Virus record (IMG/VR): IMGVR_UViG_2778261706_000022
DNA from: a virus
Lineage: Duplodnaviria; Heunggongvirae; Uroviricota; Caudoviricetes
Strand: one strand, 5' to 3'
DNA length: 39,712 nucleotides
Shown here piece after piece: positions 1 to 8,159 of the stretch. Both the position numbers and the translations under genes were made by a program. Position 1 is the first letter of the stretch; each line of letters starts with the position of its first letter. The notes under the pieces are model-generated. The model was not told the DNA's origin. It was given only the letters and a program-made list of their open reading frames with translations, and did no database searches.

Positions 1-72
1 ATGATGGGGCGTTGCCTTTTCGGCTTCTCAGGCGAGAAGCCGTTCTTATTACCGGACAATGAAGGGGTAAAG

Positions 73-702
73 ATGAACACTTCACCGGTGCGAATGGATG
101 ATTTACCGCTTAACCGTTTTCACTGTCGAATTGCTGCGCTCACTTTCGGCGCACACCTGACCGACGGTTATGTTCTCGGCGTCATTGGTTACGCCATTAT
201 TCAACTTACGCCCGCCATGCAACTGACGCCGTTTATGGCGGGAATGATCGGCGGCTCGGCGCACCTTGGTTTGTTTCTTGGCAGCCTGGTTCTTGGGTGG
301 ATCTCCGACCATATTGGTCGGCAAAAAATCTTCACCTTCAGCTTTTTGCTGATTACGCTCGCTTCGTTCTTGCAATTTTTTGCCACCACGCCAGAGCATC
401 TTATTGGACTGCGCATTTTGATCGGCATTGGTCTGGGAGGCGATTACTCAGTAGGTCACACCTTGCTGGCTGAATTTTCCCCGCGCCGCCATCGCGGTGT
501 TTTGCTGGGCGCATTCAGCGTGGTGTGGACCGTAGGCTATGTGTTGGCAAGTATTGCCGGACATCACTTTATTTCCGAAAACCCGGAGGCCTGGCGCTGG
601 CTGCTGGCATCGGCAGCTCTGCCCGCGTTGTTGATTACGTTATTACGCTGGGGAACGCCAGAATCGCCACGCTGGCTACTTATAGCGCGGCGATTTTTTT
701 GA
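73..702 (+). pseudogene. MFS-family transporter gene, 5' portion only, interrupted by prophage insertion
   Basis: Translation has MFS/sugar-porter signatures (GxxxDxxGRQ-like loop, PESPRW motif). ATG at 73 follows a GAAGGGG Shine-Dalgarno. The frame ends in a TGA at 700-702 that coincides with the first prophage terminal repeat, and the protein is far shorter than a 12-TM transporter. Confidence 0.6.
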
Positions 703-764
703 TACCGATTTGCATTTCATTTGATACCGCTGAAAAACGCCGATACGCAACTTATTTGATACTA
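698..764. repeat. Prophage right-end terminal repeats (candidate transposase binding sites)
   Basis: TTTGATACCG at 698-707 and 720-729, TTTGATACTA at 755-764, a further GATAC at 742-746, and a GAAAAACGC motif at 732-740. Element probably begins with TG at 700-701. Confidence 0.45.
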
Positions 765-808
765 AATCGGCGCTTTTCTTTTGAGTTTTAGAATGAGTTT
801 TTAAGCGC

Positions 809-1546
809 TCATTCACTCTCTTTCAAACCAGTTTTAACTGTTTGTGGTTTTGGGTAAGGCTGGACTTTGAATAGCTTTGTGTTGAGGCGTTTTCTGGCCC
901 TCTTGTTCAGAAACCGGATGTAACGAAACTGTCGGAACTTATGAACACTGGCTCTGTCAATATTAGCCCTCAGATGTTCACCTCGTTGTCCGCCTCGTTT
1001 AATGGCATTCCTGCAAATCTCGTGATACCACTCGCCATCAAGTTCATAGAATATTGATTCATGGCTGCCTACATAATCAAAATTGCTTGCCTGATACACG
1101 ACACCAAGACAGCCACAACGCTCATCTGCAAACGACTGAACCCACTGTACCTGCGGATAAAGCTGCCTGATTAGCTTGAGCGCGTAACTGATTGCCCTTG
1201 ATTCGGAGTTTCTCGGCATACAGTCATGCAGCCATAGCCGGTTAAGCTCCATATATTCTCGGTTCTGCGTACCCGTTACGACGCGTGCACCACTGTTTGG
1301 GTTAAGGGCGTAACCCCATTGCATTACGCCAACAAGTTCCCGTTCTGAAAATATGCCCAGATGAAGGTAGGAGTTATTTACGAAACGGTGGCTGTAATGT
1401 TTATTGACGATGACCAGTCTGGCCAGCCAGCAACTTATTGTCTCAACCCGCAACTCACGGGAGCCATAACCAACGATATTGTCGTTATAGCGAATAAGTT
1501 CAGGCGTGCTGATGATTCGGGATGTGACTTGCTTTCTGTTCCCCAC
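809..1546 (-). CDS. mom: Mom-like DNA modification protein
   Basis: Terminal gene of the prophage, overlapped at its 5' end by a Com-like zinc-finger ORF as in Mu com-mom. Start is a GTG at 1546. Identity is by position and the com overlap, not by recalled Mom sequence. Confidence 0.6.
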
Positions 1547-1700
1547 GACAGGATTTCCTTGTGTATGTGGGGTGCTCTGTGGCGCTCGGAGATGTGATTT
1601 GATTGAGGGTTTTACAGCGCGGACATTTTACTTCCAGATAACTGAAACTGGCCCGTGCCAGTAGCTTATTGCAGTGTCGGCACCGTATGTTTCGATACAT
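1500..1700 (-). CDS. com: Com-like zinc-finger translational activator
   Basis: Translation [14 protein letters not shown]...CPRCK carries the CxxC...CxxC zinc finger of Mu Com. ATG at 1700 is preceded by AGGAGG. ORF overlaps the mom start. Confidence 0.7.
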
Positions 1701-1739
1701 GACCGCATAACCTCCTGCTTTGTTGTTGATGCCTTTCTC

Positions 1740-1775
1740 ATGCAATCGATCGACAAAAACGATCGATTCGATTTG
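1740..1775 (-). promoter_or_regulatory. Candidate mom-operon control region with clustered Dam (GATC) sites
   Basis: GATC at 1748-1751 and 1761-1764 inside repeated TCGATCGA motifs, about 50-75 bp upstream of com. Confidence 0.4.
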
Positions 1776-1814
1776 TTTAATTGATACAACAAATAGATTG
1801 AAAAGTCATCAACA

Positions 1815-2279
1815 ATGATTCAGGGAGGTGATTATTTACTTAAAGAAAACGAAGAGTTAGGTGGTGAAAACGATCATAAAATGATCATTTTATTGACTTT
1901 TTATACAGTGAAGGTAGGATCACGCGTATATGTAGTATGTTTCAAATCAACAGGATACTACATAAAAGTGAAACCCAGCATAGCTGGAACTATGCTGGGT
2001 CAATCTGTAAAAACTTGCATCAATGCTTTACTTCGAGCTCGTGGCGTATCCTATGATATTCCCCGGTCTCCTGTAAAGCAGAGATGCATAAAAAGGAGAT
2101 CTTTATCATGGATGAAAGAGCCTGTTTGCCCTGCCTGTAAGACTCCCTTACAGCTCATCTATCGCCGTTCTCGATCTCAAAATGGCAAGACATACAAACC
2201 CAAAAATGCTTCCTGTTTCAGGATGCTGATATGTCCTGCCTGTTCTCCCAGGAGGGAAAATACACAAAACGTGCATTAA
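1815..2279 (+). CDS. Hypothetical protein with C-terminal CPAC...CPAC zinc-ribbon motif
   Basis: Only ORF in an AT-rich 570-bp gap and divergent from com. Two CPAC motifs in the translation. Start uncertain (internal ATG at 1881 possible). Confidence 0.3.
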   Translation: MIQGGDYLLKENEELGGENDHKMIILLTFYTVKVGSRVYVVCFKSTGYYIKVKPSIAGTMLGQSVKTCINALLRARGVSYDIPRSPVKQRCIKRRSLSWMKEPVCPACKTPLQLIYRRSRSQNGKTYKPKNASCFRMLICPACSPRRENTQNVH

Positions 2280-2317
2280 CAAACTCACCCGGCAGGGAAA
2301 CCTGCCGGTCGGTATTG

Positions 2318-2563
2318 TTACATCATAGTACCGTCAGTTCCGGGCTGAACCGGCTCTGGTTGCTCTACGGGTTGAGGATCATTTTCCGTGCTGTTTTCAG
2401 CCGGAGAACGGCCAACCATTCGGGCCAGCACTTCATCAACATATGCGTCGATTTGTGCCTCAAAATCCTTGCGAACCTGCGCCTTCAGCACGCGGTTCAC
2501 TTCTTCAGAATAAAGTGCCTGTTTGACAAGCTCTTCAGTAACCGTGCCTTTAATCTCTGGCAT
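2318..2563 (-). CDS. Hypothetical small acidic protein (81 aa)
   Basis: AAGGAG Shine-Dalgarno 8 nt upstream of the ATG. Helical N-terminus with a Pro/Glu-rich tail. Confidence 0.5.
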   Translation of the reverse strand: MPEIKGTVTEELVKQALYSEEVNRVLKAQVRKDFEAQIDAYVDEVLARMVGRSPAENSTENDPQPVEQPEPVQPGTDGTMM

Positions 2564-2598
2564 GAATATTCTCCTTTTGCAGGTATATTGCCCCGTTA

Positions 2599-2781
2599 TC
2601 AGAGCGGGGTCGGGTCGTTTGGGGATGACGGTGCCTGTGCTGTTTTACTGAGTTTTTCAGCTGCCGCATCATCAATTTTACGGCGAATATAATTTCTGAT
2701 GACCTTATAACCACCGCTCACCAGATATAACGCACTGACCACAGCGCAGAAATAAAGCAGCATTGTATGAACGAATGTCAT
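2599..2781 (-). CDS. Hypothetical small membrane protein (60 aa, one predicted TM helix)
   Basis: Hydrophobic stretch LLYFCAVVSALYLV. Upstream AAAGGTAAGG. Confidence 0.4.
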   Translation of the reverse strand: MTFVHTMLLYFCAVVSALYLVSGGYKVIRNYIRRKIDDAAAEKLSKTAQAPSSPNDPTPL

Positions 2782-2849
2782 ATAACCTTACCTTTGATAT
2801 TGACTACATAATTCGTTATCGGGTAAAAACATCGAAGCGACTGATAACC

Positions 2850-2874
2850 ACTCCTTCGGGAGTATTTTTATTTT
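2850..2874 (+). terminator. Intrinsic terminator-like hairpin (ACTCC-TTCG-GGAGT + T-run)
   Basis: 5-bp stem with TTCG tetraloop at 2850-2863 followed by ATTTTTATTTT. Confidence 0.45.
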
Positions 2875-2893
2875 CCTTTATGGGTTAGGTAGC

Positions 2894-2932
2894 TCCCGCC
2901 AGCCATATCATGACCGGCGGGATTTTTTTATT
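2894..2932 (+). terminator. Intrinsic terminator-like hairpin (TCCCGCC...GGCGGGA + T7)
   Basis: 7-bp GC-rich stem at 2894-2900 / 2916-2922 followed by TTTTTTT. Overlaps the esterase stop codon on the opposite strand. Confidence 0.45.
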
Positions 2933-4967
2933 CTGTTACCGCTTTTTTCACTTCCACCACAATGCTGTCAATCAGCACCGGGTAAGTTGCATTTTTTGTG
3001 ATATCCGTTACGCGGAGTTTGTCCACCGGGAAAGTTCCTACTGGTGACTGCGTCAGGGTAAACGCGGCACCATCCTGACCATCAATAACCGGAATAACCT
3101 GAAGGCTGTTATTTCCTGCAAAACGGAAGGCCAGCGTATGCCATTCATTATCAAATGCACCAAAGGTTCCCAGTTTCTGGTTATTTGTTGCCACTTTTGC
3201 ATTGTGGTACATCACATTCAGGTCTTTTGCGTCTGTCTGGATGTAGAACGATGCCAGCAGATTATTCCCTGCATCCCCTGTCAGGGTGACACCCTGCGGC
3301 AGAGAGGAAACCGGCCAGTAAAGCCCCATGACATACTGGTTTGCCACCAGGTCGCCAGGTACTTTAAAACGACAACTGATTAAACCACCATTTTTCAGCA
3401 GTTCAGCACCAGTACCGGCATCATGATCCAGATACCAAGATGATTTACCTGTTTCCTTGGTCAGTTTCATTGCCTTACCACCTGTGCCTCCTGCATCACT
3501 GATAATTTCAGCTTTACCGCCAGCCGGCTCCCAGCCCTGGGCTTTCAGATTTCCTTCTGACTCACTGACACGATAAGACAGCAGTGTTGTGGTTACTGCT
3601 TCAGTTTCTGAAGGTGACGGCACTGGTGCTTCAGTTTCAGAAGATGGAACATCGGCTTTTACTGTGGTTCGCCCCGCATGAGTCAGAACTGCCGTGGCCA
3701 GACGGTCGGAAATAATCCCACGACGTGCCCATGAACTGAAATGGCTGGCCCGGTCCGCAGATGTCCAGGTGGCGGCACTGTTACGCCACGTTGAGCCGTA
3801 ATAACCAATGGATTCAATATCCGGGTCTTCTGCCGGATTGTTGGTGGGTACATTCGCGTCATTTTCATCTGTCATTAATGGAACGAAATGAATGTTTTTA
3901 TCTGTTTTGTTTTTGTAGCCGCCATAGATTGCCTGGTATGCCGGTTCATTTTTCTGTTTCCAGAAATACGTGGTATCGCCACAAATCCACGGAACGCCAG
4001 CAGCACTGCCACCGGTACACTGTTCCGCCTGTTCAGCCAGGTCTGCGCGGAATTTTTCCACCATCGCCAGAAACAGCGCGGAATGCTCCGTCGGCTTCGC
4101 ATCAATATCAAACTCGCCCTGCATCCACACCACAGCAAGCAGGCGGTTTTTCGGGTTCTTCGCCAGTGCCGCTTTTGTCCGGCTGATTAAGTCCTTATAC
4201 AGCGGCTTATCCACACCCCAGCGGGCTGAGTCCTCTGAAGCACCCGTGCTGTCACTGTACGTGCCGTCAGCACCCGCCGTGAATGCAGAACCACCACGGC
4301 AGCAGGGAACCAGCAGAATCCCCGCATCTGCCGGAATAAACGGCAGCAGTTTTTTGGCAATGTGAAGCCCCTGACCCACGGTGCCATATTGCCCTTTAGC
4401 CACATCCGCTTTCGGGTGATTTTTTCCACTCATATCCTGCACATCATGCAGACAGTGGTCGGCCAGAATGATGTCGTTATACTGACAGGCTTTACCTCCC
4501 GGCGTGACTGTACTGCGACGGGCTAACTGCATAATACGCGGTTCGGGGCGGTCATATGTCTCCGGCAGTGGCAGACCTTCACCGTAAGCCATACCGTTTG
4601 ACTGACCAGCAAGAACCACCACGTAATACCAGGAAGGGGAGCTGGAAGCAGTTTCATTTCCTGACGGACGGGTATGTGTTTCAGCATTATCCCAGTCTGA
4701 CGGTTCAGCAGTACCGGCAACATCAGCACTTAACGGAATGACCGCACCAATACCCGCTCCGGTAATTTCCACACTCGGATCACCGGATACTGGCCTTACC
4801 CACAGGCAATCCCGTGTATTAAAACTGATGAGACAGTCAGCAAATGTCATTCCTCCTTTTGTTTCGGCCGGAGGAAAGGGAGCCTCAAGAAATGCCGCTG
4901 TACCACCGGAAACTTTAACAGTAAAGTTTCCGGGCATTGATGATAGTTGAACCCATTTGGACGTCAT
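2928..4967 (-). CDS. SASA/SGNH-type carbohydrate esterase with C-terminal lectin-like domain (NanS-p-like sialate O-acetylesterase candidate)
   Basis: 679-aa ORF with VLAGQSNGMAYGEG and WMQGEFD motifs typical of the sialate O-acetylesterase (SASA) family, a Pro/Ser/Thr/Glu linker (SETEAPVPSPSETEA), and a C-terminal beta-rich domain. No signal peptide. Confidence 0.6.
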   Translation of the reverse strand: MTSKWVQLSSMPGNFTVKVSGGTAAFLEAPFPPAETKGGMTFADCLISFNTRDCLWVRPVSGDPSVEITGAGIGAVIPLSADVAGTAEPSDWDNAETHTRPSGNETASSSPSWYYVVVLAGQSNGMAYGEGLPLPETYDRPEPRIMQLARRSTVTPGGKACQYNDIILADHCLHDVQDMSGKNHPKADVAKGQYGTVGQGLHIAKKLLPFIPADAGILLVPCCRGGSAFTAGADGTYSDSTGASEDSARWGVDKPLYKDLISRTKAALAKNPKNRLLAVVWMQGEFDIDAKPTEHSALFLAMVEKFRADLAEQAEQCTGGSAAGVPWICGDTTYFWKQKNEPAYQAIYGGYKNKTDKNIHFVPLMTDENDANVPTNNPAEDPDIESIGYYGSTWRNSAATWTSADRASHFSSWARRGIISDRLATAVLTHAGRTTVKADVPSSETEAPVPSPSETEAVTTTLLSYRVSESEGNLKAQGWEPAGGKAEIISDAGGTGGKAMKLTKETGKSSWYLDHDAGTGAELLKNGGLISCRFKVPGDLVANQYVMGLYWPVSSLPQGVTLTGDAGNNLLASFYIQTDAKDLNVMYHNAKVATNNQKLGTFGAFDNEWHTLAFRFAGNNSLQVIPVIDGQDGAAFTLTQSPVGTFPVDKLRVTDITKNATYPVLIDSIVVEVKKAVTE

Positions 4968-5066
4968 AATAATCAGCCTGTTCCTGAATAAACTGAATTA
5001 TCATATCCACAGACCGATAAACGCCATTTTGCGTTAATTCAGTAAAGGCCCAACAAAGGGAGCGTC

Positions 5067-5627
5067 TTATTTTTCCGAAACGCTCGCAGGATAATAACGA
5101 TAAAGGGTTGAAAGGCCGATATCAAAAATAAGTGCCACCTGTCTTCGACTGACACCCCCGGCCAGTAAACGCCCGACCTGCTCGTATTGTTCCTGCGTGA
5201 GACGACGGGGTCTGCCGCCGGTTCGTCCCCTTTCACGGGCAGCTGCAAGACCAGCCCGTGTCCGTTCGACAATTAATTCACGCTCCATTTCTGCCAGCGC
5301 ACCCATTATGTGAAAAAAGAAGCGCCCCATGGGGGTTGACGTATCAATGTTGTCAGTAAGACTACGAAAATTTATCCCCTGTTGCTGTAATTCATCTGTC
5401 AGCGCAACAAGGTGGCGCATACTGCGCCCCAGCCTGTCCAGTTTCCAGACCATCAGTGTGTCACCGGGTTTTAGTTTCTTCAGTGCCCGCTTCAGTCCCG
5501 GCCGCTGTGTCGTTTTACCACTCATTTTATCTTCAAAAATCTGCTCACATCCTGCACATTCCAGCGCATTTCTTTGTAAACCTGTGTTCTGGTCATTTGT
5601 TGATACGCGTATATAGCCAATCAGCAT
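5067..5627 (-). CDS. gin: Serine DNA invertase (Gin/Pin/Hin/Cin family)
   Basis: Translation MLIGYIRVSTNDQNTGLQRNALECAGCEQIFEDK...FRSLTDNIDTSTPMGRFFFHIMGALAEMERELIVERT closely matches my recollection of Mu Gin. Adjacent to an invertible segment. Confidence 0.9.
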   Translation of the reverse strand: MLIGYIRVSTNDQNTGLQRNALECAGCEQIFEDKMSGKTTQRPGLKRALKKLKPGDTLMVWKLDRLGRSMRHLVALTDELQQQGINFRSLTDNIDTSTPMGRFFFHIMGALAEMERELIVERTRAGLAAARERGRTGGRPRRLTQEQYEQVGRLLAGGVSRRQVALIFDIGLSTLYRYYPASVSEK

Positions 5628-5681
5628 GTATTTACCTTCCTTAAAAAGAGGTGGAAAGGCCTTTTAAAGCAGATATACGGC

Positions 5682-5707
5682 ATCCCTGAAACCTCGGTTT
5701 ACGGGAT
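5682..5707. repeat. gix-like recombination site (gin-proximal)
   Basis: ATCCCTGAAACC-TC-GGTTTACGGGAT: imperfect 12-bp inverted half-sites around a central dinucleotide, resembling gix/hix/cix sites. Confidence 0.6.
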
Positions 5708-6052
5708 ACTGTAAACAGGGCCGCGAATGCCCTGCCATCGAACGGAGCGGCTGTTGCAGCGAATAAACTCGCCACTCCAAGAAATATTAATGGTGTCCCA
5801 TTTGACGGAACGCAGGATATAAATATTACATCGGGGATGACGCAGTCTGTGGCTGACTCACGTTATGTTCAAAGCATTCGAAGAGGTTCAAGGTCAACGA
5901 TTGGAATGCAATATAATATTTTTGAGGTTCCTGACGGATGCGTACTTACAGGGCTTGATGTCGCTGGTGATGGTAATGCAACGGTAACCGCATATTATCG
6001 ACCTGTTCAGTTTCTGATAGATGGTTCGTGGAAAACAGCTTCCAGCGCATAA
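5708..6052 (+). other. Silent alternative tail-fibre C-terminal cassette (S'v-like)
   Basis: Frame is open from the gix site. Translation GLRDTVNRAANALPSNGAAVAANKLATPRNINGVPFDGTQDINITSGMTQSVADSRYVQ parallels the expressed fibre segment GLRETVNKAADALPSGGTAVAANRLATPRNINGVPFDGTLDINITSGMTQSTADGRYVQ, then diverges to a different C-terminus. No start codon of its own. Confidence 0.65.
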
Positions 6053-6131
6053 AAGTGCAGTAGTTCAAAAAACAGATTATCTGAATAAATATATGATGAT
6101 TTTGTCTTTTCAACAAAAACAAGGTGAAATA

Positions 6132-6653
6132 ATGGAGCTTATTAACGTAAAACGATATTACCCGGAACACAAACCCTATGGTGAGGATGTTCAGTATTTC
6201 CAGAGTGAGGACGGAAGGGATTTTTATGAATCTATCCCGCTTTTCACAAAGAAATACAAACTCTGTATTTCGCCTGTAACGGGTATTATCTGCTCTGTTG
6301 CTGAAGATGTCTCTGCTTTATATCCGGCAGGTTTTACTGTTGTTGAAGTGGACGAACTGCCGGAAGGTGTGAATATTGACGGTAACTGGCAGTTTTCTGA
6401 TGGCCTGATATCAAAGGTGCCGGTAAACTGGAAGACGGTTGCTGAAAAGCGCCGCTCATCGCTGCTCCAGGAAGCCAACGAAACTGTGGATGACTGGAAA
6501 ACGGAATTAAAACTGGACATGATTAGCGATGAAAATAAATTACAGCTGACGCGCTGGATGGCGTATATCCGACAGCTTAAAGAAATGCACTTTAATGATA
6601 TTGCCAGTGAGGGGCATTACCAGGCGATTCCCTGGCCGGAAAAACCGGAATAA
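6132..6653 (+). CDS. Tail fibre assembly protein (Tfa/U-like)
   Basis: ATG at 6132 is preceded by AAGGTGA. Translation MELINVKRYYPEHKPYGEDVQYF... has the typical N-terminus of phage tail-fibre assembly chaperones. Lies immediately downstream of the S'v cassette on the same strand. Confidence 0.7.
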   Translation: MELINVKRYYPEHKPYGEDVQYFQSEDGRDFYESIPLFTKKYKLCISPVTGIICSVAEDVSALYPAGFTVVEVDELPEGVNIDGNWQFSDGLISKVPVNWKTVAEKRRSSLLQEANETVDDWKTELKLDMISDENKLQLTRWMAYIRQLKEMHFNDIASEGHYQAIPWPEKPE

Positions 6654-6658
6654 TTCAG

Positions 6659-6682
6659 AGGGTGCATTCAGCACCCTTTTCT
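6659..6682 (+). terminator. Intrinsic terminator between convergent tfa and tail-fibre genes
   Basis: AGGGTGC-ATTCA-GCACCCT hairpin followed by TTTTCT. Confidence 0.5.
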
Positions 6683-6687
6683 GTGGT

Positions 6688-7599
6688 TTACACTGAACTT
6701 ACCGTTCTCCAGGCATTATTAATATAAATCTGAACCGGGCGATAATAGACCCCACCGATATTGTCCGCAGACCGGGAGCCGGTTTCCTGCACGTTAATTC
6801 CGGAAAGCATACAACCGGAAGGTGCGCTGTAATTCCATGACATTTCATTGCCTCCGGGTGAATGATAGCTCTGTGCTCCAAGCTGAACATTCTGTACATA
6901 CCGGCCATCTGCGGTTGACTGCGTCATTCCTGACGTGATGTTGATATCCAGCGTTCCGTCAAAAGGAACACCATTAATATTTCTTGGGGTGGCGAGTCTG
7001 TTTGCTGCCACGGCGGTTCCACCCGATGGCAGGGCATCAGCAGCCTTATTTACCGTTTCCCGTAAACCGACGTTATCGATAAAAGCGCCTTTATCCGGAA
7101 TGTCTGCGCCGTTCTGCTCCCTGCGCAGGTAACGGTTATCACCTTCGCTTTTGCTGTAAACATCCAGATTATTACGGGCGGTTCCCGCATTCTCCAGGTC
7201 GGCAAGGTTCTGATCCTTCGCCAGAGCATTAACGTCACCGGGACCAAGACTGTTTTTTGTGGCAAGCGCCCCAAGACCAAGATAACCACGGGCAAGACGC
7301 TGGGCTTCCGCACCGGCATCAGCAATTTCTTTCAGGTTGTTTTTCCGGGAAAAGGCATTCGCAGCGATAATGGCTTTAATGGACAGCGTAAGCTGGTTTA
7401 ACTGCGCCTTATCCGGCTGAATACTGGCTTCAGCCAGAATATTCAGCAGTTCGGCCTGGAGAATATTCAGCCAGTCCTGACCAATCCAGCTGATACCTTT
7501 TTGTCCGTCACCTTCGGTAAACCAGGTGGTGGTATTACTCTGCGCCGGTGCCAGCGCAGGCATATTCGCCACGCCGGAATTATTATCAACATGGAACAT
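6688..7599 (-). CDS. Tail fibre protein (constant part + currently expressed variable part)
   Basis: ATG at 7599 overlaps the upstream stop as TAATG. A gix-like site lies inside the ORF at 7057-7082. C-terminal segment is homologous to the silent cassette at 5708-6052. Confidence 0.7.
   Translation of the reverse strand: MFHVDNNSGVANMPALAPAQSNTTTWFTEGDGQKGISWIGQDWLNILQAELLNILAEASIQPDKAQLNQLTLSIKAIIAANAFSRKNNLKEIADAGAEAQRLARGYLGLGALATKNSLGPGDVNALAKDQNLADLENAGTARNNLDVYSKSEGDNRYLRREQNGADIPDKGAFIDNVGLRETVNKAADALPSGGTAVAANRLATPRNINGVPFDGTLDINITSGMTQSTADGRYVQNVQLGAQSYHSPGGNEMSWNYSAPSGCMLSGINVQETGSRSADNIGGVYYRPVQIYINNAWRTVSSV
7057..7082. repeat. gix-like recombination site inside the tail-fibre gene
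   Basis: TTCCCGTAAACC-GA-CGTTATCGATAA. Its reverse complement shares TCGGTTTACGGGA with the gin-proximal site, and homology continues ~170 bp into the segment. Confidence 0.6.
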
Positions 7600-8159
7600 T
7601 AAATATTCTCCTCTTCGTGACTGTTTGCATATACGTAAATAAACGTCTGCCATGCAGGCTTATAACGGTTCAGAATACATTCCAGCGCACCGCCTTCATA
7701 AATACGCAGCGGCGTGAGAATATCATCCAGCACATTCATATTCCGGTAGCCGGTTTCACTGTTAATCGTGACAATACTGACCCACTGTGAATCCGGTGAT
7801 GGCTGAATATCTATTTCATAACCAAACTCTGCCGCAAACCGGATATAAAATTCACGGTTAAGAGAGGGTTTCATCCGGTATTTATTCCCGGCATAACGCT
7901 GACGCTCCTGAATGGTTGCGCCGGTCATATCACATTCCGGTAACCCCAGATAACGCTCCCAGTCTTCCAGCAGCAGACGGGATGAATCAGGAAAACGTTC
8001 TGCCAGCATCTGGTTACCGGTCCAGGAAACACGCTCCGTGGAATGACTGAGGCCCAGGCACAAAGCCGCAAGAACGGATGACGGCCGCTTATCCCATGCC
8101 AGCCCGTCAGGCAGCAACTGCAACAGGGCGCGCTGATGCGGGGTCAGGGTTACAGCCAT
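7599..8159 (-). CDS. Baseplate/tail protein (Mu gp48 position)
   Basis: 186-aa ORF translationally coupled between the baseplate J-like gene and the tail-fibre gene. Confidence 0.55.
   Translation of the reverse strand: MAVTLTPHQRALLQLLPDGLAWDKRPSSVLAALCLGLSHSTERVSWTGNQMLAERFPDSSRLLLEDWERYLGLPECDMTGATIQERQRYAGNKYRMKPSLNREFYIRFAAEFGYEIDIQPSPDSQWVSIVTINSETGYRNMNVLDDILTPLRIYEGGALECILNRYKPAWQTFIYVYANSHEEENI

Follow-up and report, generated by a model that had tools for sequence, protein, structure and literature searches.

Paired hairpins convergent with a prophage carbohydrate esterase gene as the probable body and 3' end of the small RNA gene EcOnc37

The window analyzed here is the whole of a 39,712-nucleotide (nt) stretch of DNA from a virus of the Caudoviricetes (IMG/VR record IMGVR_UViG_2778261706_000022), the left end of which is the right end of a Mu-like prophage in reverse orientation. 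At positions 2850-2932, in the spacer between a carbohydrate esterase gene and the gene of a small membrane protein of the DUF1378 family, lie two hairpins with T-runs on the plus strand only, a pattern that a first-pass annotation had reported and that we confirmed in the sequence. We conclude, with a probability of roughly 0.8, that 2850-2932 constitutes the body and 3' end of a plus-strand gene for an Hfq-bound small RNA, EcOnc37, located in the esterase-DUF1378 spacer. Transcription of the small RNA opposes that of the esterase gene and runs up to the stop codon of the latter, from a candidate promoter in the spacer upstream of DUF1378. The feature is real and functional but essentially known, as it corresponds to a published candidate small RNA of a well-known kind.

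RESULTS

Published data from strain Sakai place an abundant, Hfq-bound RNA on the plus strand

Positions 1700-3100 of the window are identical to the Mu-like prophage Sp18 of Escherichia coli O157:H7 Sakai, and over 681-8000 the identity with Sp18 is 99.945%. Coordinates were converted as NC_002695.1 position = 5080278 - window position, a relation fixed by the read sequences of cross-linking, ligation, and sequencing of hybrids (CLASH) together with the published coordinates of ECs4994; NC_002695.1 and NC_002695.2 are offset by 127 at the EcOnc37 locus and by +142 in the stx2 region.

EcOnc37 was described as a peak of Hfq binding mapped by cross-linking and analysis of cDNA (CRAC), located in Sp18 at 5077340-5077410(-) of NC_002695.1 (Tree et al., 2014, Mol Cell, PMC4104026, Table S2). 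These coordinates convert to 2868-2938 on the plus strand of the window, so that sequence, strand, and locus are identical. The peak was found in 5/5 Hfq data sets, and the authors flagged a predicted Rho-independent terminator (PMC4104026, Table S2). Among intergenic regions ranked by Hfq reads, the ECs4993...ECs4994 spacer is number 57, with strand counts of 15921/0, 5032/0, 11303/1, 91585/187, and 2303/0 (PMC4104026, Table S1B). The read-bearing column was assigned to the minus strand of the genome from the placement of ssrA, spf, cyaR, ryhB, and sroC, and almost all Hfq reads of the spacer are consequently antisense to ECs4993 and ECs4994. The CRAC peak thereby supplies, from the literature, the in vivo Hfq binding expected of an Hfq-dependent small RNA. 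ECs4994, ECs4995, and ECs4996 are absent, on either strand, from the supplementary tables of the Hfq study, including its list of the top 100 Hfq-bound coding sequences.

A second data set, RNase E CLASH, names EcOnc37 in approximately 20 table rows (Waters et al., 2017, PMC5286369). Six of these rows were examined; all hold plus-strand sequence and together span 2811-2932, with fragments at 2871-2909, 2877-2905, 2877-2907, 2907-2932, and 2811-2863. The fragment at 2907-2932 has the sequence ATCATGACCGGCGGGATTTTTTTATT, beyond which the chimera continues with a different RNA, so that plus-strand sequence reaches ...GGCGGGATTTTTTTATT at 2932. A 3' end at this point is supported by that single chimera junction, which follows ...GGCGGGAUUUUUUUAUU; the Hfq peak extends to 2938. 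Hybrid partners were the 5' untranslated region (UTR) of ECs4627, ECs2098, ECs3353, and ECs2390; in the hybrids with ECs4627, ECs2098, and ECs3353, each of one read, the EcOnc37 fragments cover 2871-2909.

Strand-specific RNA sequencing (RNA-seq) combined with ribosome profiling yielded a "novel gene," XECs426 (Huecker et al., 2017, PMC5597208), which occupies 2831-2998 on the plus strand of the window. Its RNA-seq values in three conditions were 2027/1474/145 reads per kilobase per million (RPKM), versus 31/45/23 for the adjacent ECs4994 (PMC5597208). Together, the three studies establish the strand of the RNA, its abundance, its binding by Hfq, its association with RNase E, and the extension of reads into the U-tract of hairpin 2. 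The proposal that the T-runs serve a plus-strand transcript was therefore upheld by the antisense-strand Hfq reads, by CLASH reads through to 2932, and by strand-specific RNA-seq.

Hairpin 2 is an intrinsic terminator and hairpin 1 is probably an internal stem-loop

Hairpin 2 (TCCCGCC..GGCGGGA) is followed at once by T7 and then ATT, and its tail runs into the stop codon of the esterase gene, a minus-strand TAA at 2930-2928. On the plus strand it folds at -14.7 kcal/mol, with a 7-bp GC core in a 13-position stem that includes two A.C mismatches; it thus combines the GC-rich stem and the immediate U-tract of an intrinsic terminator, although our consensus terminator scan missed it. On the minus strand, that is, in the 3' region of the esterase mRNA, the same segment reaches -23.2 kcal/mol as a 13-bp stem with two G.U pairs but without a U-tract; neither hairpin is directly followed by a T-run on that strand. 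A 159-nt stretch of the spacer folds better than shuffled sequence on both strands (z about -2.9).

Hairpin 1 (ACTCC-TTCG-GGAGT, then ATTTTTATTTT) has a 5-bp stem closed by a cUUCGg loop; at -6.6 kcal/mol and followed by AUUUUUAUUUU, it stands at the weak end of the terminator range. The consensus scan, applied to 8 kb, returned 19 sites, hairpin 1 among them, versus 8.8 +/- 3.4 in shuffles, and because sites of its quality are frequent in shuffled sequence, hairpin 1 on its own does not exceed chance. Hfq and CLASH reads run on past it; no read ends in its U-tract, and the segment 3' of it (2868-2938) holds the Hfq peak and the majority of CLASH fragments, a distribution that leaves room for partial termination. 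Hairpin 1 is therefore probably an internal stem-loop rather than a second terminator, and at most a leaky first one. The first-pass description of two tandem terminators accordingly holds for hairpin 2, with its U7 and the covariation described below, but probably not for hairpin 1, which is short, weak, and limited to one lineage. We conclude that hairpin 2 with its U7 (2894-2929) is the intrinsic, Rho-independent terminator of the small RNA.

The terminator is conserved in position and covaries among esterase loci

The locus was compared with 80 viral contigs encoding relatives of the esterase C terminus and with annotated E. coli loci. A stem followed by T6-8, antisense to the esterase and 1-10 nt from its stop codon, was present in 32 of the 33 distinct alleles (downstream sequences), with CCGCCAG/CTGGCGG as the conserved stem core. 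When 13 distinct terminators were aligned, 89% of cells were paired, five pairs were invariant, and 3 of 9 pairs showed compensatory double changes; at the seventh pair, for example, A-U changes to G-C, with the A.C of this window as the intermediate. The covariation score was 0.154 versus 0.078 in shuffles, a value reached by 0/500 shuffles and well above that of slid controls. Hairpin 2 is thus clearly not a chance feature, in view of its placement, its compensatory changes, and its covariation score.

The stretch that separates the promoter motif from the terminator is allele specific. Identity within 2830-2869 is only 25-42% for alleles that share 57-79% identity in the flanking coding regions, and hairpin 1 is limited to alleles of the Sp18 type, being kept in allele L012 and, with a shifted pairing register, in L015. 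As a separate observation, a Mu-like prophage of E. coli 2012C-4502 (L005, 5078-5134) carries a divergent esterase and DUF1378 only 57 bp apart; this spacer has neither a T-run hairpin nor a TTGACW motif and represents a natural version of the block that lacks the small RNA gene.

A candidate promoter and an Hfq-binding layout suggest an RNA of about 95-98 nt

A pattern search with TTGACW-N17/18-TARAAA gave one match in the 39.7-kb window, at 2800-2829 on the plus strand, where 0.04 were expected. The pattern occurred once in 89 of 95 fetched loci; in esterase-matched loci it falls just past the esterase end on the antisense strand, about 95-125 nt upstream of the terminator and on the same strand as the latter. 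TTGACA is also found upstream of the small RNAs PasA, PasC, and EcOnc52, where no DUF1378 gene follows. For EcOnc33, a small RNA in the equivalent position in another Sakai prophage, the Northern size (~71 nt) and the start of the Hfq peak agree with a start just 3' of the -10 motif, and the sizes of the other small RNAs in such positions, PasA (85 nt) and PasC (79 nt), are likewise compatible with it. An alternative weak promoter, CTGATA-N16-TATTTT (start near 2875), was considered and set aside; it could explain the CLASH starts at 2871 and 2877, which RNase trimming explains equally well.

Based on these features (Table 1), transcription would proceed from the candidate -35 and -10 boxes, with a start near 2835. 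A short single-stranded 5' segment would be followed by hairpin 1, its cUUCGg loop included, as an internal module. The order hairpin 1, AUUUUUAUUUUCCUUUAU, hairpin 2, and U7 is that of an Hfq-binding module, which Ishikawa and coworkers reportedly defined in 2012 as a 3' hairpin with a poly-U tail plus an upstream U-rich single strand. The U-rich linker would accordingly bind Hfq and carry the pairing region GGUUAGGUAGCUCC, and hairpin 2 with its U7 would end the RNA near 2930-2932. By our own reading of the CLASH hybrids, pairing involves the linker together with the 5' arm of hairpin 2 (GGUUAGGUAG/GUAGCUCCCGCCA). EcOnc37 would then most likely act in trans, by base-pairing with other transcripts aided by Hfq and RNase E.

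TABLE 1 Features of the left part of the window, in window coordinates
Feature	Position	Strand	Remarks
Small RNA EcOnc37, predicted about 95-98 nt	2835-2932	+	5' end predicted; 3' end read supported
Candidate -35 box, TTGACT	2800-2805	+	From pattern search; putative promoter element
Candidate -10 box, TAAAAA	2824-2829	+	From pattern search, 18-nt spacer; putative promoter element
Hairpin 1	2850-2863	+	Probably an internal stem-loop
U-rich single-stranded linker AUUUUUAUUUUCCUUUAUGGGUUAGGUAGC	2864-2893	+	Likely Hfq contact and base-pairing region; inside the Hfq peak
Hairpin 2 and U7	2894-2922 and 2923-2929	+	Terminator of the small RNA
Hairpin 2 in the esterase mRNA 3' region	2894-2922	-	No U-tract
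Esterase-DUF1378 spacer	2782-2927		146 bp
SASA/DUF6645 carbohydrate esterase (NanS-p type)	2928-4967	-	Pfam PF03629 and PF20350; RefSeq annotation
DUF1378 small membrane protein gene	2599-2781	-	Pfam PF07125, 1.2e-38
DUF826 gene	2318-2563	-	Pfam PF05696; last gene of the esterase module
GC-rich hairpin	2291-2310	Both	Between the convergent stops of DUF826 and the plus-strand open reading frame
Annotated hypothetical open reading frame	1815-2279	+	
GATC-rich com/mom control region	About 1700-1810		
com	1500-1700	-	
mom	809-1546	-	
Host gene fragment (major facilitator superfamily [MFS] transporter gene)	1-680		Prophage end near 681
gin-type invertase	5067-5627	-	
Invertible tail-fiber segment	Beyond 5627		

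Several observations weigh against this assignment or restrict it. All four examined hybrids between EcOnc37 and mRNAs are single reads. The main weakness is a CLASH read that begins at 2811, 24 nt 5' of the predicted start, and extends across the proposed -10 box; this box also lacks the final T. The TTGACW and A-run motifs are at the same time part of the 5' leader of DUF1378, and their conservation could partly reflect the mRNA strand. Rfam searches of the whole window at the gathering threshold and of 1700-3100 at E <= 10 returned only noise, and blastn and blastn-short comparisons of PasA and PasC with the spacer and the window gave only matches of 7-10 nt (E >= 0.027). The papers and tables consulted give EcOnc37 as a peak and a name; a Northern blot is absent from them, as is information on the ends, promoter, structure, family, or function of the RNA. 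Finally, PasA reportedly arises by cleavage of a longer precursor transcript (Zhu, Shabalina and Storz, 2026 preprint). Given the read from 2811, some longer plus-strand transcripts exist, and because of this read and the processing reported for PasA, EcOnc37 might be partly or wholly processed from a longer plus-strand precursor.

A role in cis is unlikely to replace action in trans

Complementarity between EcOnc37 and the sense-operon spacer is complete, and a cis role at the esterase-DUF1378 junction was considered, in which the two RNAs form a duplex cleaved by RNase III, convergent transcription interferes, or hairpin 2 serves as a 3' stabilizer or weak bidirectional stop. The position of the terminator 1-10 nt from the esterase stop in 32 of 33 alleles speaks for such a role, as does the far greater stability of hairpin 2 on the mRNA strand in this allele; in addition, an intramolecular RNase E CLASH hybrid of the sense-strand hairpin-2 stem is on record under the ECs4993 3' UTR. 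However, the greater minus-strand stability is shared by allele L089 and not by other alleles. The G.U asymmetry was thus rejected as a sign that hairpin 2 works on the mRNA strand, being real here but not systematic over 16 alleles. The mRNA strand moreover lacks a U-tract, the modeled EcOnc37 stops short of the DUF1378 ribosome-binding site, and Hfq binding and chimeras with unlinked mRNAs point to action in trans. A cis role is therefore an unlikely explanation of the hairpins, although it is compatible with EcOnc37 as a trans-acting small RNA and could coexist with it rather than replace it.

A long transcript from the left is poorly compatible with the data

The first-pass annotation had instead proposed that the hairpins stop a long plus-strand transcript coming from the left, for example from the open reading frame (ORF) at 1815-2279, which would run antisense across DUF826 and DUF1378 and act in antisense control or in insulation of the cargo block. 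In its favor, the CLASH fragment at 2811-2863 indicates that some plus-strand RNA begins upstream of the predicted start, PasA is said to derive from a longer transcript, and the U-tract after the 2291-2310 hairpin is imperfect (UCGGUAUUGUU), which would allow read-through from the left. Against it, the abundant RNA is short and local, with an Hfq peak confined to 2868-2938 and a promoter-like motif within the spacer itself, and the genes ECs4994-ECs4996 are missing on both strands from the Hfq tables. As modeled, the RNA overlaps neither of the two small ORFs nor the DUF1378 ribosome-binding site. The 2291-2310 hairpin, which has a GAAA loop and folds at -17.8 kcal/mol on the plus strand and -17.1 kcal/mol on the minus strand, lies directly 3' of the stop of ORF 1815-2279; it probably serves DUF826 and the plus-strand ORF as a common terminator and would stop most transcripts of left origin before 2850. 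The hairpin-T-run unit and the promoter-like motif also occur beside esterases of lambdoid prophages without ORF 1815-2279 and without any Mu context, and because of this the EcOnc37 unit is no adaptation that insulates this particular cargo block. A transcript from the left is thus quite unlikely to account for the hairpins.

The ORF itself (154 amino acids [aa]) has homologues only in the same Mu-like context and is not kept as one reading frame: a 1-nt indel at 2114 shifts the frame of its last third between variants, and another copy is annotated as frameshifted. Given these properties, its status as a real gene is doubtful. A shorter ORF of ~56 aa, from ATG 2112 to 2279 on the plus strand, encodes a CPAC...CPAC zinc ribbon, is preceded by the Shine-Dalgarno sequence AAGGAG at 2093-2098, and is open in both variants; judged by its sequence, it may be a real plus-strand gene. 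The description of every confident gene as lying on the minus strand thus stands broadly, with this plausible exception.

The RNA is very improbable as the mRNA of a small protein

XECs426 was published as a translated small gene, a 56-codon ORF at 2831-2998, and its RNA-seq signal is that of the same transcript as EcOnc37. Ribosome profiling gave 1074 RPKM and a ribosome coverage value of 0.55 in lysogeny broth (LB), and the ORF is among the authors' 465 translated intergenic ORFs (PMC5597208). In the authors' supplementary tables, however, it is labeled "pseudo" (in one of them, "real" and "pseudo"). The ORF would start at ATC, neither a Shine-Dalgarno sequence nor a homologue was found for it, and its frame takes in the whole hairpin 2/U7 terminator. 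Only 0.50-0.69 of its length is covered by footprints, which fits an RNA ending near 2930. Stops interrupt the frame in alleles L002 and L089, and an indel removes its start in L012. Contamination of ribosome-footprint libraries by abundant small RNAs bound to protein is common. XECs426 is thus probably a noncoding RNA scored as coding, and a protein-coding function of the transcript is very improbable. We also dropped the idea that the ATC start marks the left edge of the RNA-seq signal, as an in-frame stop at 2801-2803 bounds the ORF in any case.

A type I toxin-antitoxin system of the Sok kind, with DUF1378 as the toxin, was rejected, as the modeled RNA begins ~54 nt before the DUF1378 start codon and points away from the gene, with no overlap with the toxin ribosome-binding site; the CLASH read from 2811 likewise ends short of this site, and the Rfam search of 1700-3100 gave no Sok match.

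Similar small RNAs adjoin esterase genes in lambdoid prophages

A close counterpart of EcOnc37 is EcOnc33 of Sakai prophage Sp6, which like EcOnc37 is antisense in an esterase (ECs1527)-DUF1378 (ECs1528) spacer. It has the promoter motif TTGACA-N18-TAAAAA and a terminator stem GCCGCCGG/CCGGCGGC with T7 about 10 nt from the esterase stop, and it is documented by its Northern band of ~71 nt and a strong Hfq peak. The RNA bodies are nevertheless unrelated (35-46% identity in aligned segments), and EcOnc33 lacks the cUUCGg hairpin.

PasA and PasC of enteropathogenic E. coli (EPEC) E2348/69, with the enterohemorrhagic E. coli (EHEC) homologues EcOnc51 and EcOnc52, occupy the same slot as EcOnc37, convergent with a SASA esterase and before the lysis genes. 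PasA (85 nt) and PasC (79 nt) are Northern validated and Hfq dependent (Pearl Mizrahi, 2021, PMC8550237), are annotated "> < >" (convergent) beside the esterase in E2348/69, and were placed between a sialic acid esterase and holin-lysozyme genes (Zhu, Shabalina and Storz, 2026 preprint). EcOnc37 shares this synteny, being convergent with a SASA esterase and located between it and downstream late genes. In Sp4, EcOnc52 adjoins the stop codon of esterase ECs1088, and the PasC/EcOnc52 terminator, GCCAGCG..CGCTGGC with T7, adjoins the esterase stop exactly as hairpin 2 does. The PasA seed overlaps the 5' arm of its own terminator stem (Zhu, Shabalina and Storz, 2026 preprint), as does the pairing region of EcOnc37 by our reading of the hybrids. 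At the PasA and PasC loci, in contrast, the esterase C-terminal domain is ~35% identical, an equivalent of hairpin 1 is lacking, and DUF1378 and DUF826 are absent. The PasA/PasC family was defined by blastn, and the window has no such similarity to it; because blastn and Rfam were both negative, the tie between EcOnc37 and PasA/PasC is one of position and architecture rather than of demonstrable sequence homology. In E2348/69 prophage PP2 (L008, 2760-3060), we also observed tandem units, PasA and then a PasC/EcOnc52-type unit adjoining the esterase stop; the terminator of the second unit coincides with the published "minor" 236-nt PasA 3' end.

The anti-small RNAs AgvB and AsxR (RF02702 and RF02703) resemble EcOnc37 as short Hfq-binding RNAs of EHEC prophage late regions, convergent with their neighbors and with variable 5' and conserved 3' ends. 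They differ in size (51-60 nt) and in location, as they are found beyond the opposite end of the esterase gene, in the interval that separates it from stx2B or Q; neither family matched the window at the gathering threshold or 1700-3100 at E <= 10. HnrS was also considered and excluded, as it corresponds to EcOnc10-12 and a different locus.

The block resides between gin and com of a Mu-like prophage

An order of esterase, DUF1378, DUF826, and holin is found in lambdoid prophages, and in lambdoid and Shiga toxin (Stx) prophages the first three genes form part of the late operon, with stx or tRNA genes on one side and the holin on the other. The esterase-DUF1378-DUF826 block is borrowed from lambdoid phages and is no Mu feature; here the esterase-small RNA-DUF1378-DUF826 block is placed between gin and com. 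The 1700-3100 block was found at >=80% coverage in 168 of 5426 complete E. coli genomes, which include O157:H7, O111, O103, and others.

The neighbor of the prophage varies, being the MFS-transporter gene fragment here, sorM in Sakai, melA in 2012C-4502, and, for strain E2855 and two Stx phage records, a lambdoid prophage at its Q region; such variation fits Mu-like transposition into many sites. Upstream of com, a palindrome with two GATC sites occupies 1744-1768 and resembles the Dam/OxyR-controlled mom regulatory region of phage Mu. Further along, 1968-2005 forms a hairpin of 11-13 bp, ACCCAGCATAG-N6-CTATGCTGGGT, which on the minus strand has a T-rich tail. The Mu-like variant L093, although its flanks are ~99% identical, carries in place of this hairpin a different, fully complementary one, GGTCCAGATAG-N6-CTATCTGGACC.

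DISCUSSION

In this locus, "terminators on the wrong strand" are the signature of a short, convergent RNA gene rather than of an insulation device. The small RNA gene travels with the esterase, and differing small RNAs (EcOnc33, EcOnc52, PasA, and PasC) fill the same slot in lambdoid prophages. A bolder proposal is that this slot is a "socket," with fixed -35 and -10 elements and a CCGCCAG-type terminator joined to the stop codon, into which unrelated RNA bodies are swapped, so that EcOnc33, EcOnc37, EcOnc51/52, PasA, and PasC would be alleles of one locus moving with the esterase between lambdoid and Mu-like phages, while the convergent RNA and a double-duty hairpin would act in cis to uncouple or silence DUF1378-DUF826(-lysis) from esterase transcription in lysogens. 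Taken jointly, these elements form a speculative and, on balance, doubtful scheme.

What is new here is the anatomy of EcOnc37, its equation with XECs426, and its placement in the esterase-linked slot with EcOnc33, EcOnc52, PasA, and PasC. One RNA of ~95 nt with a defined architecture thereby stands behind three separate labels in the literature, namely the Hfq peak named EcOnc37, the entries in the CLASH table, and XECs426, and the link through the slot to the validated EcOnc33, PasA, and PasC is one that would escape surveys based on BLAST. If it is true that EcOnc37 regulates host or virulence transcripts, as AgvB, AsxR, HnrS, and Esr41 do, those 168 of 5426 E. coli genomes would gain one more prophage regulator.

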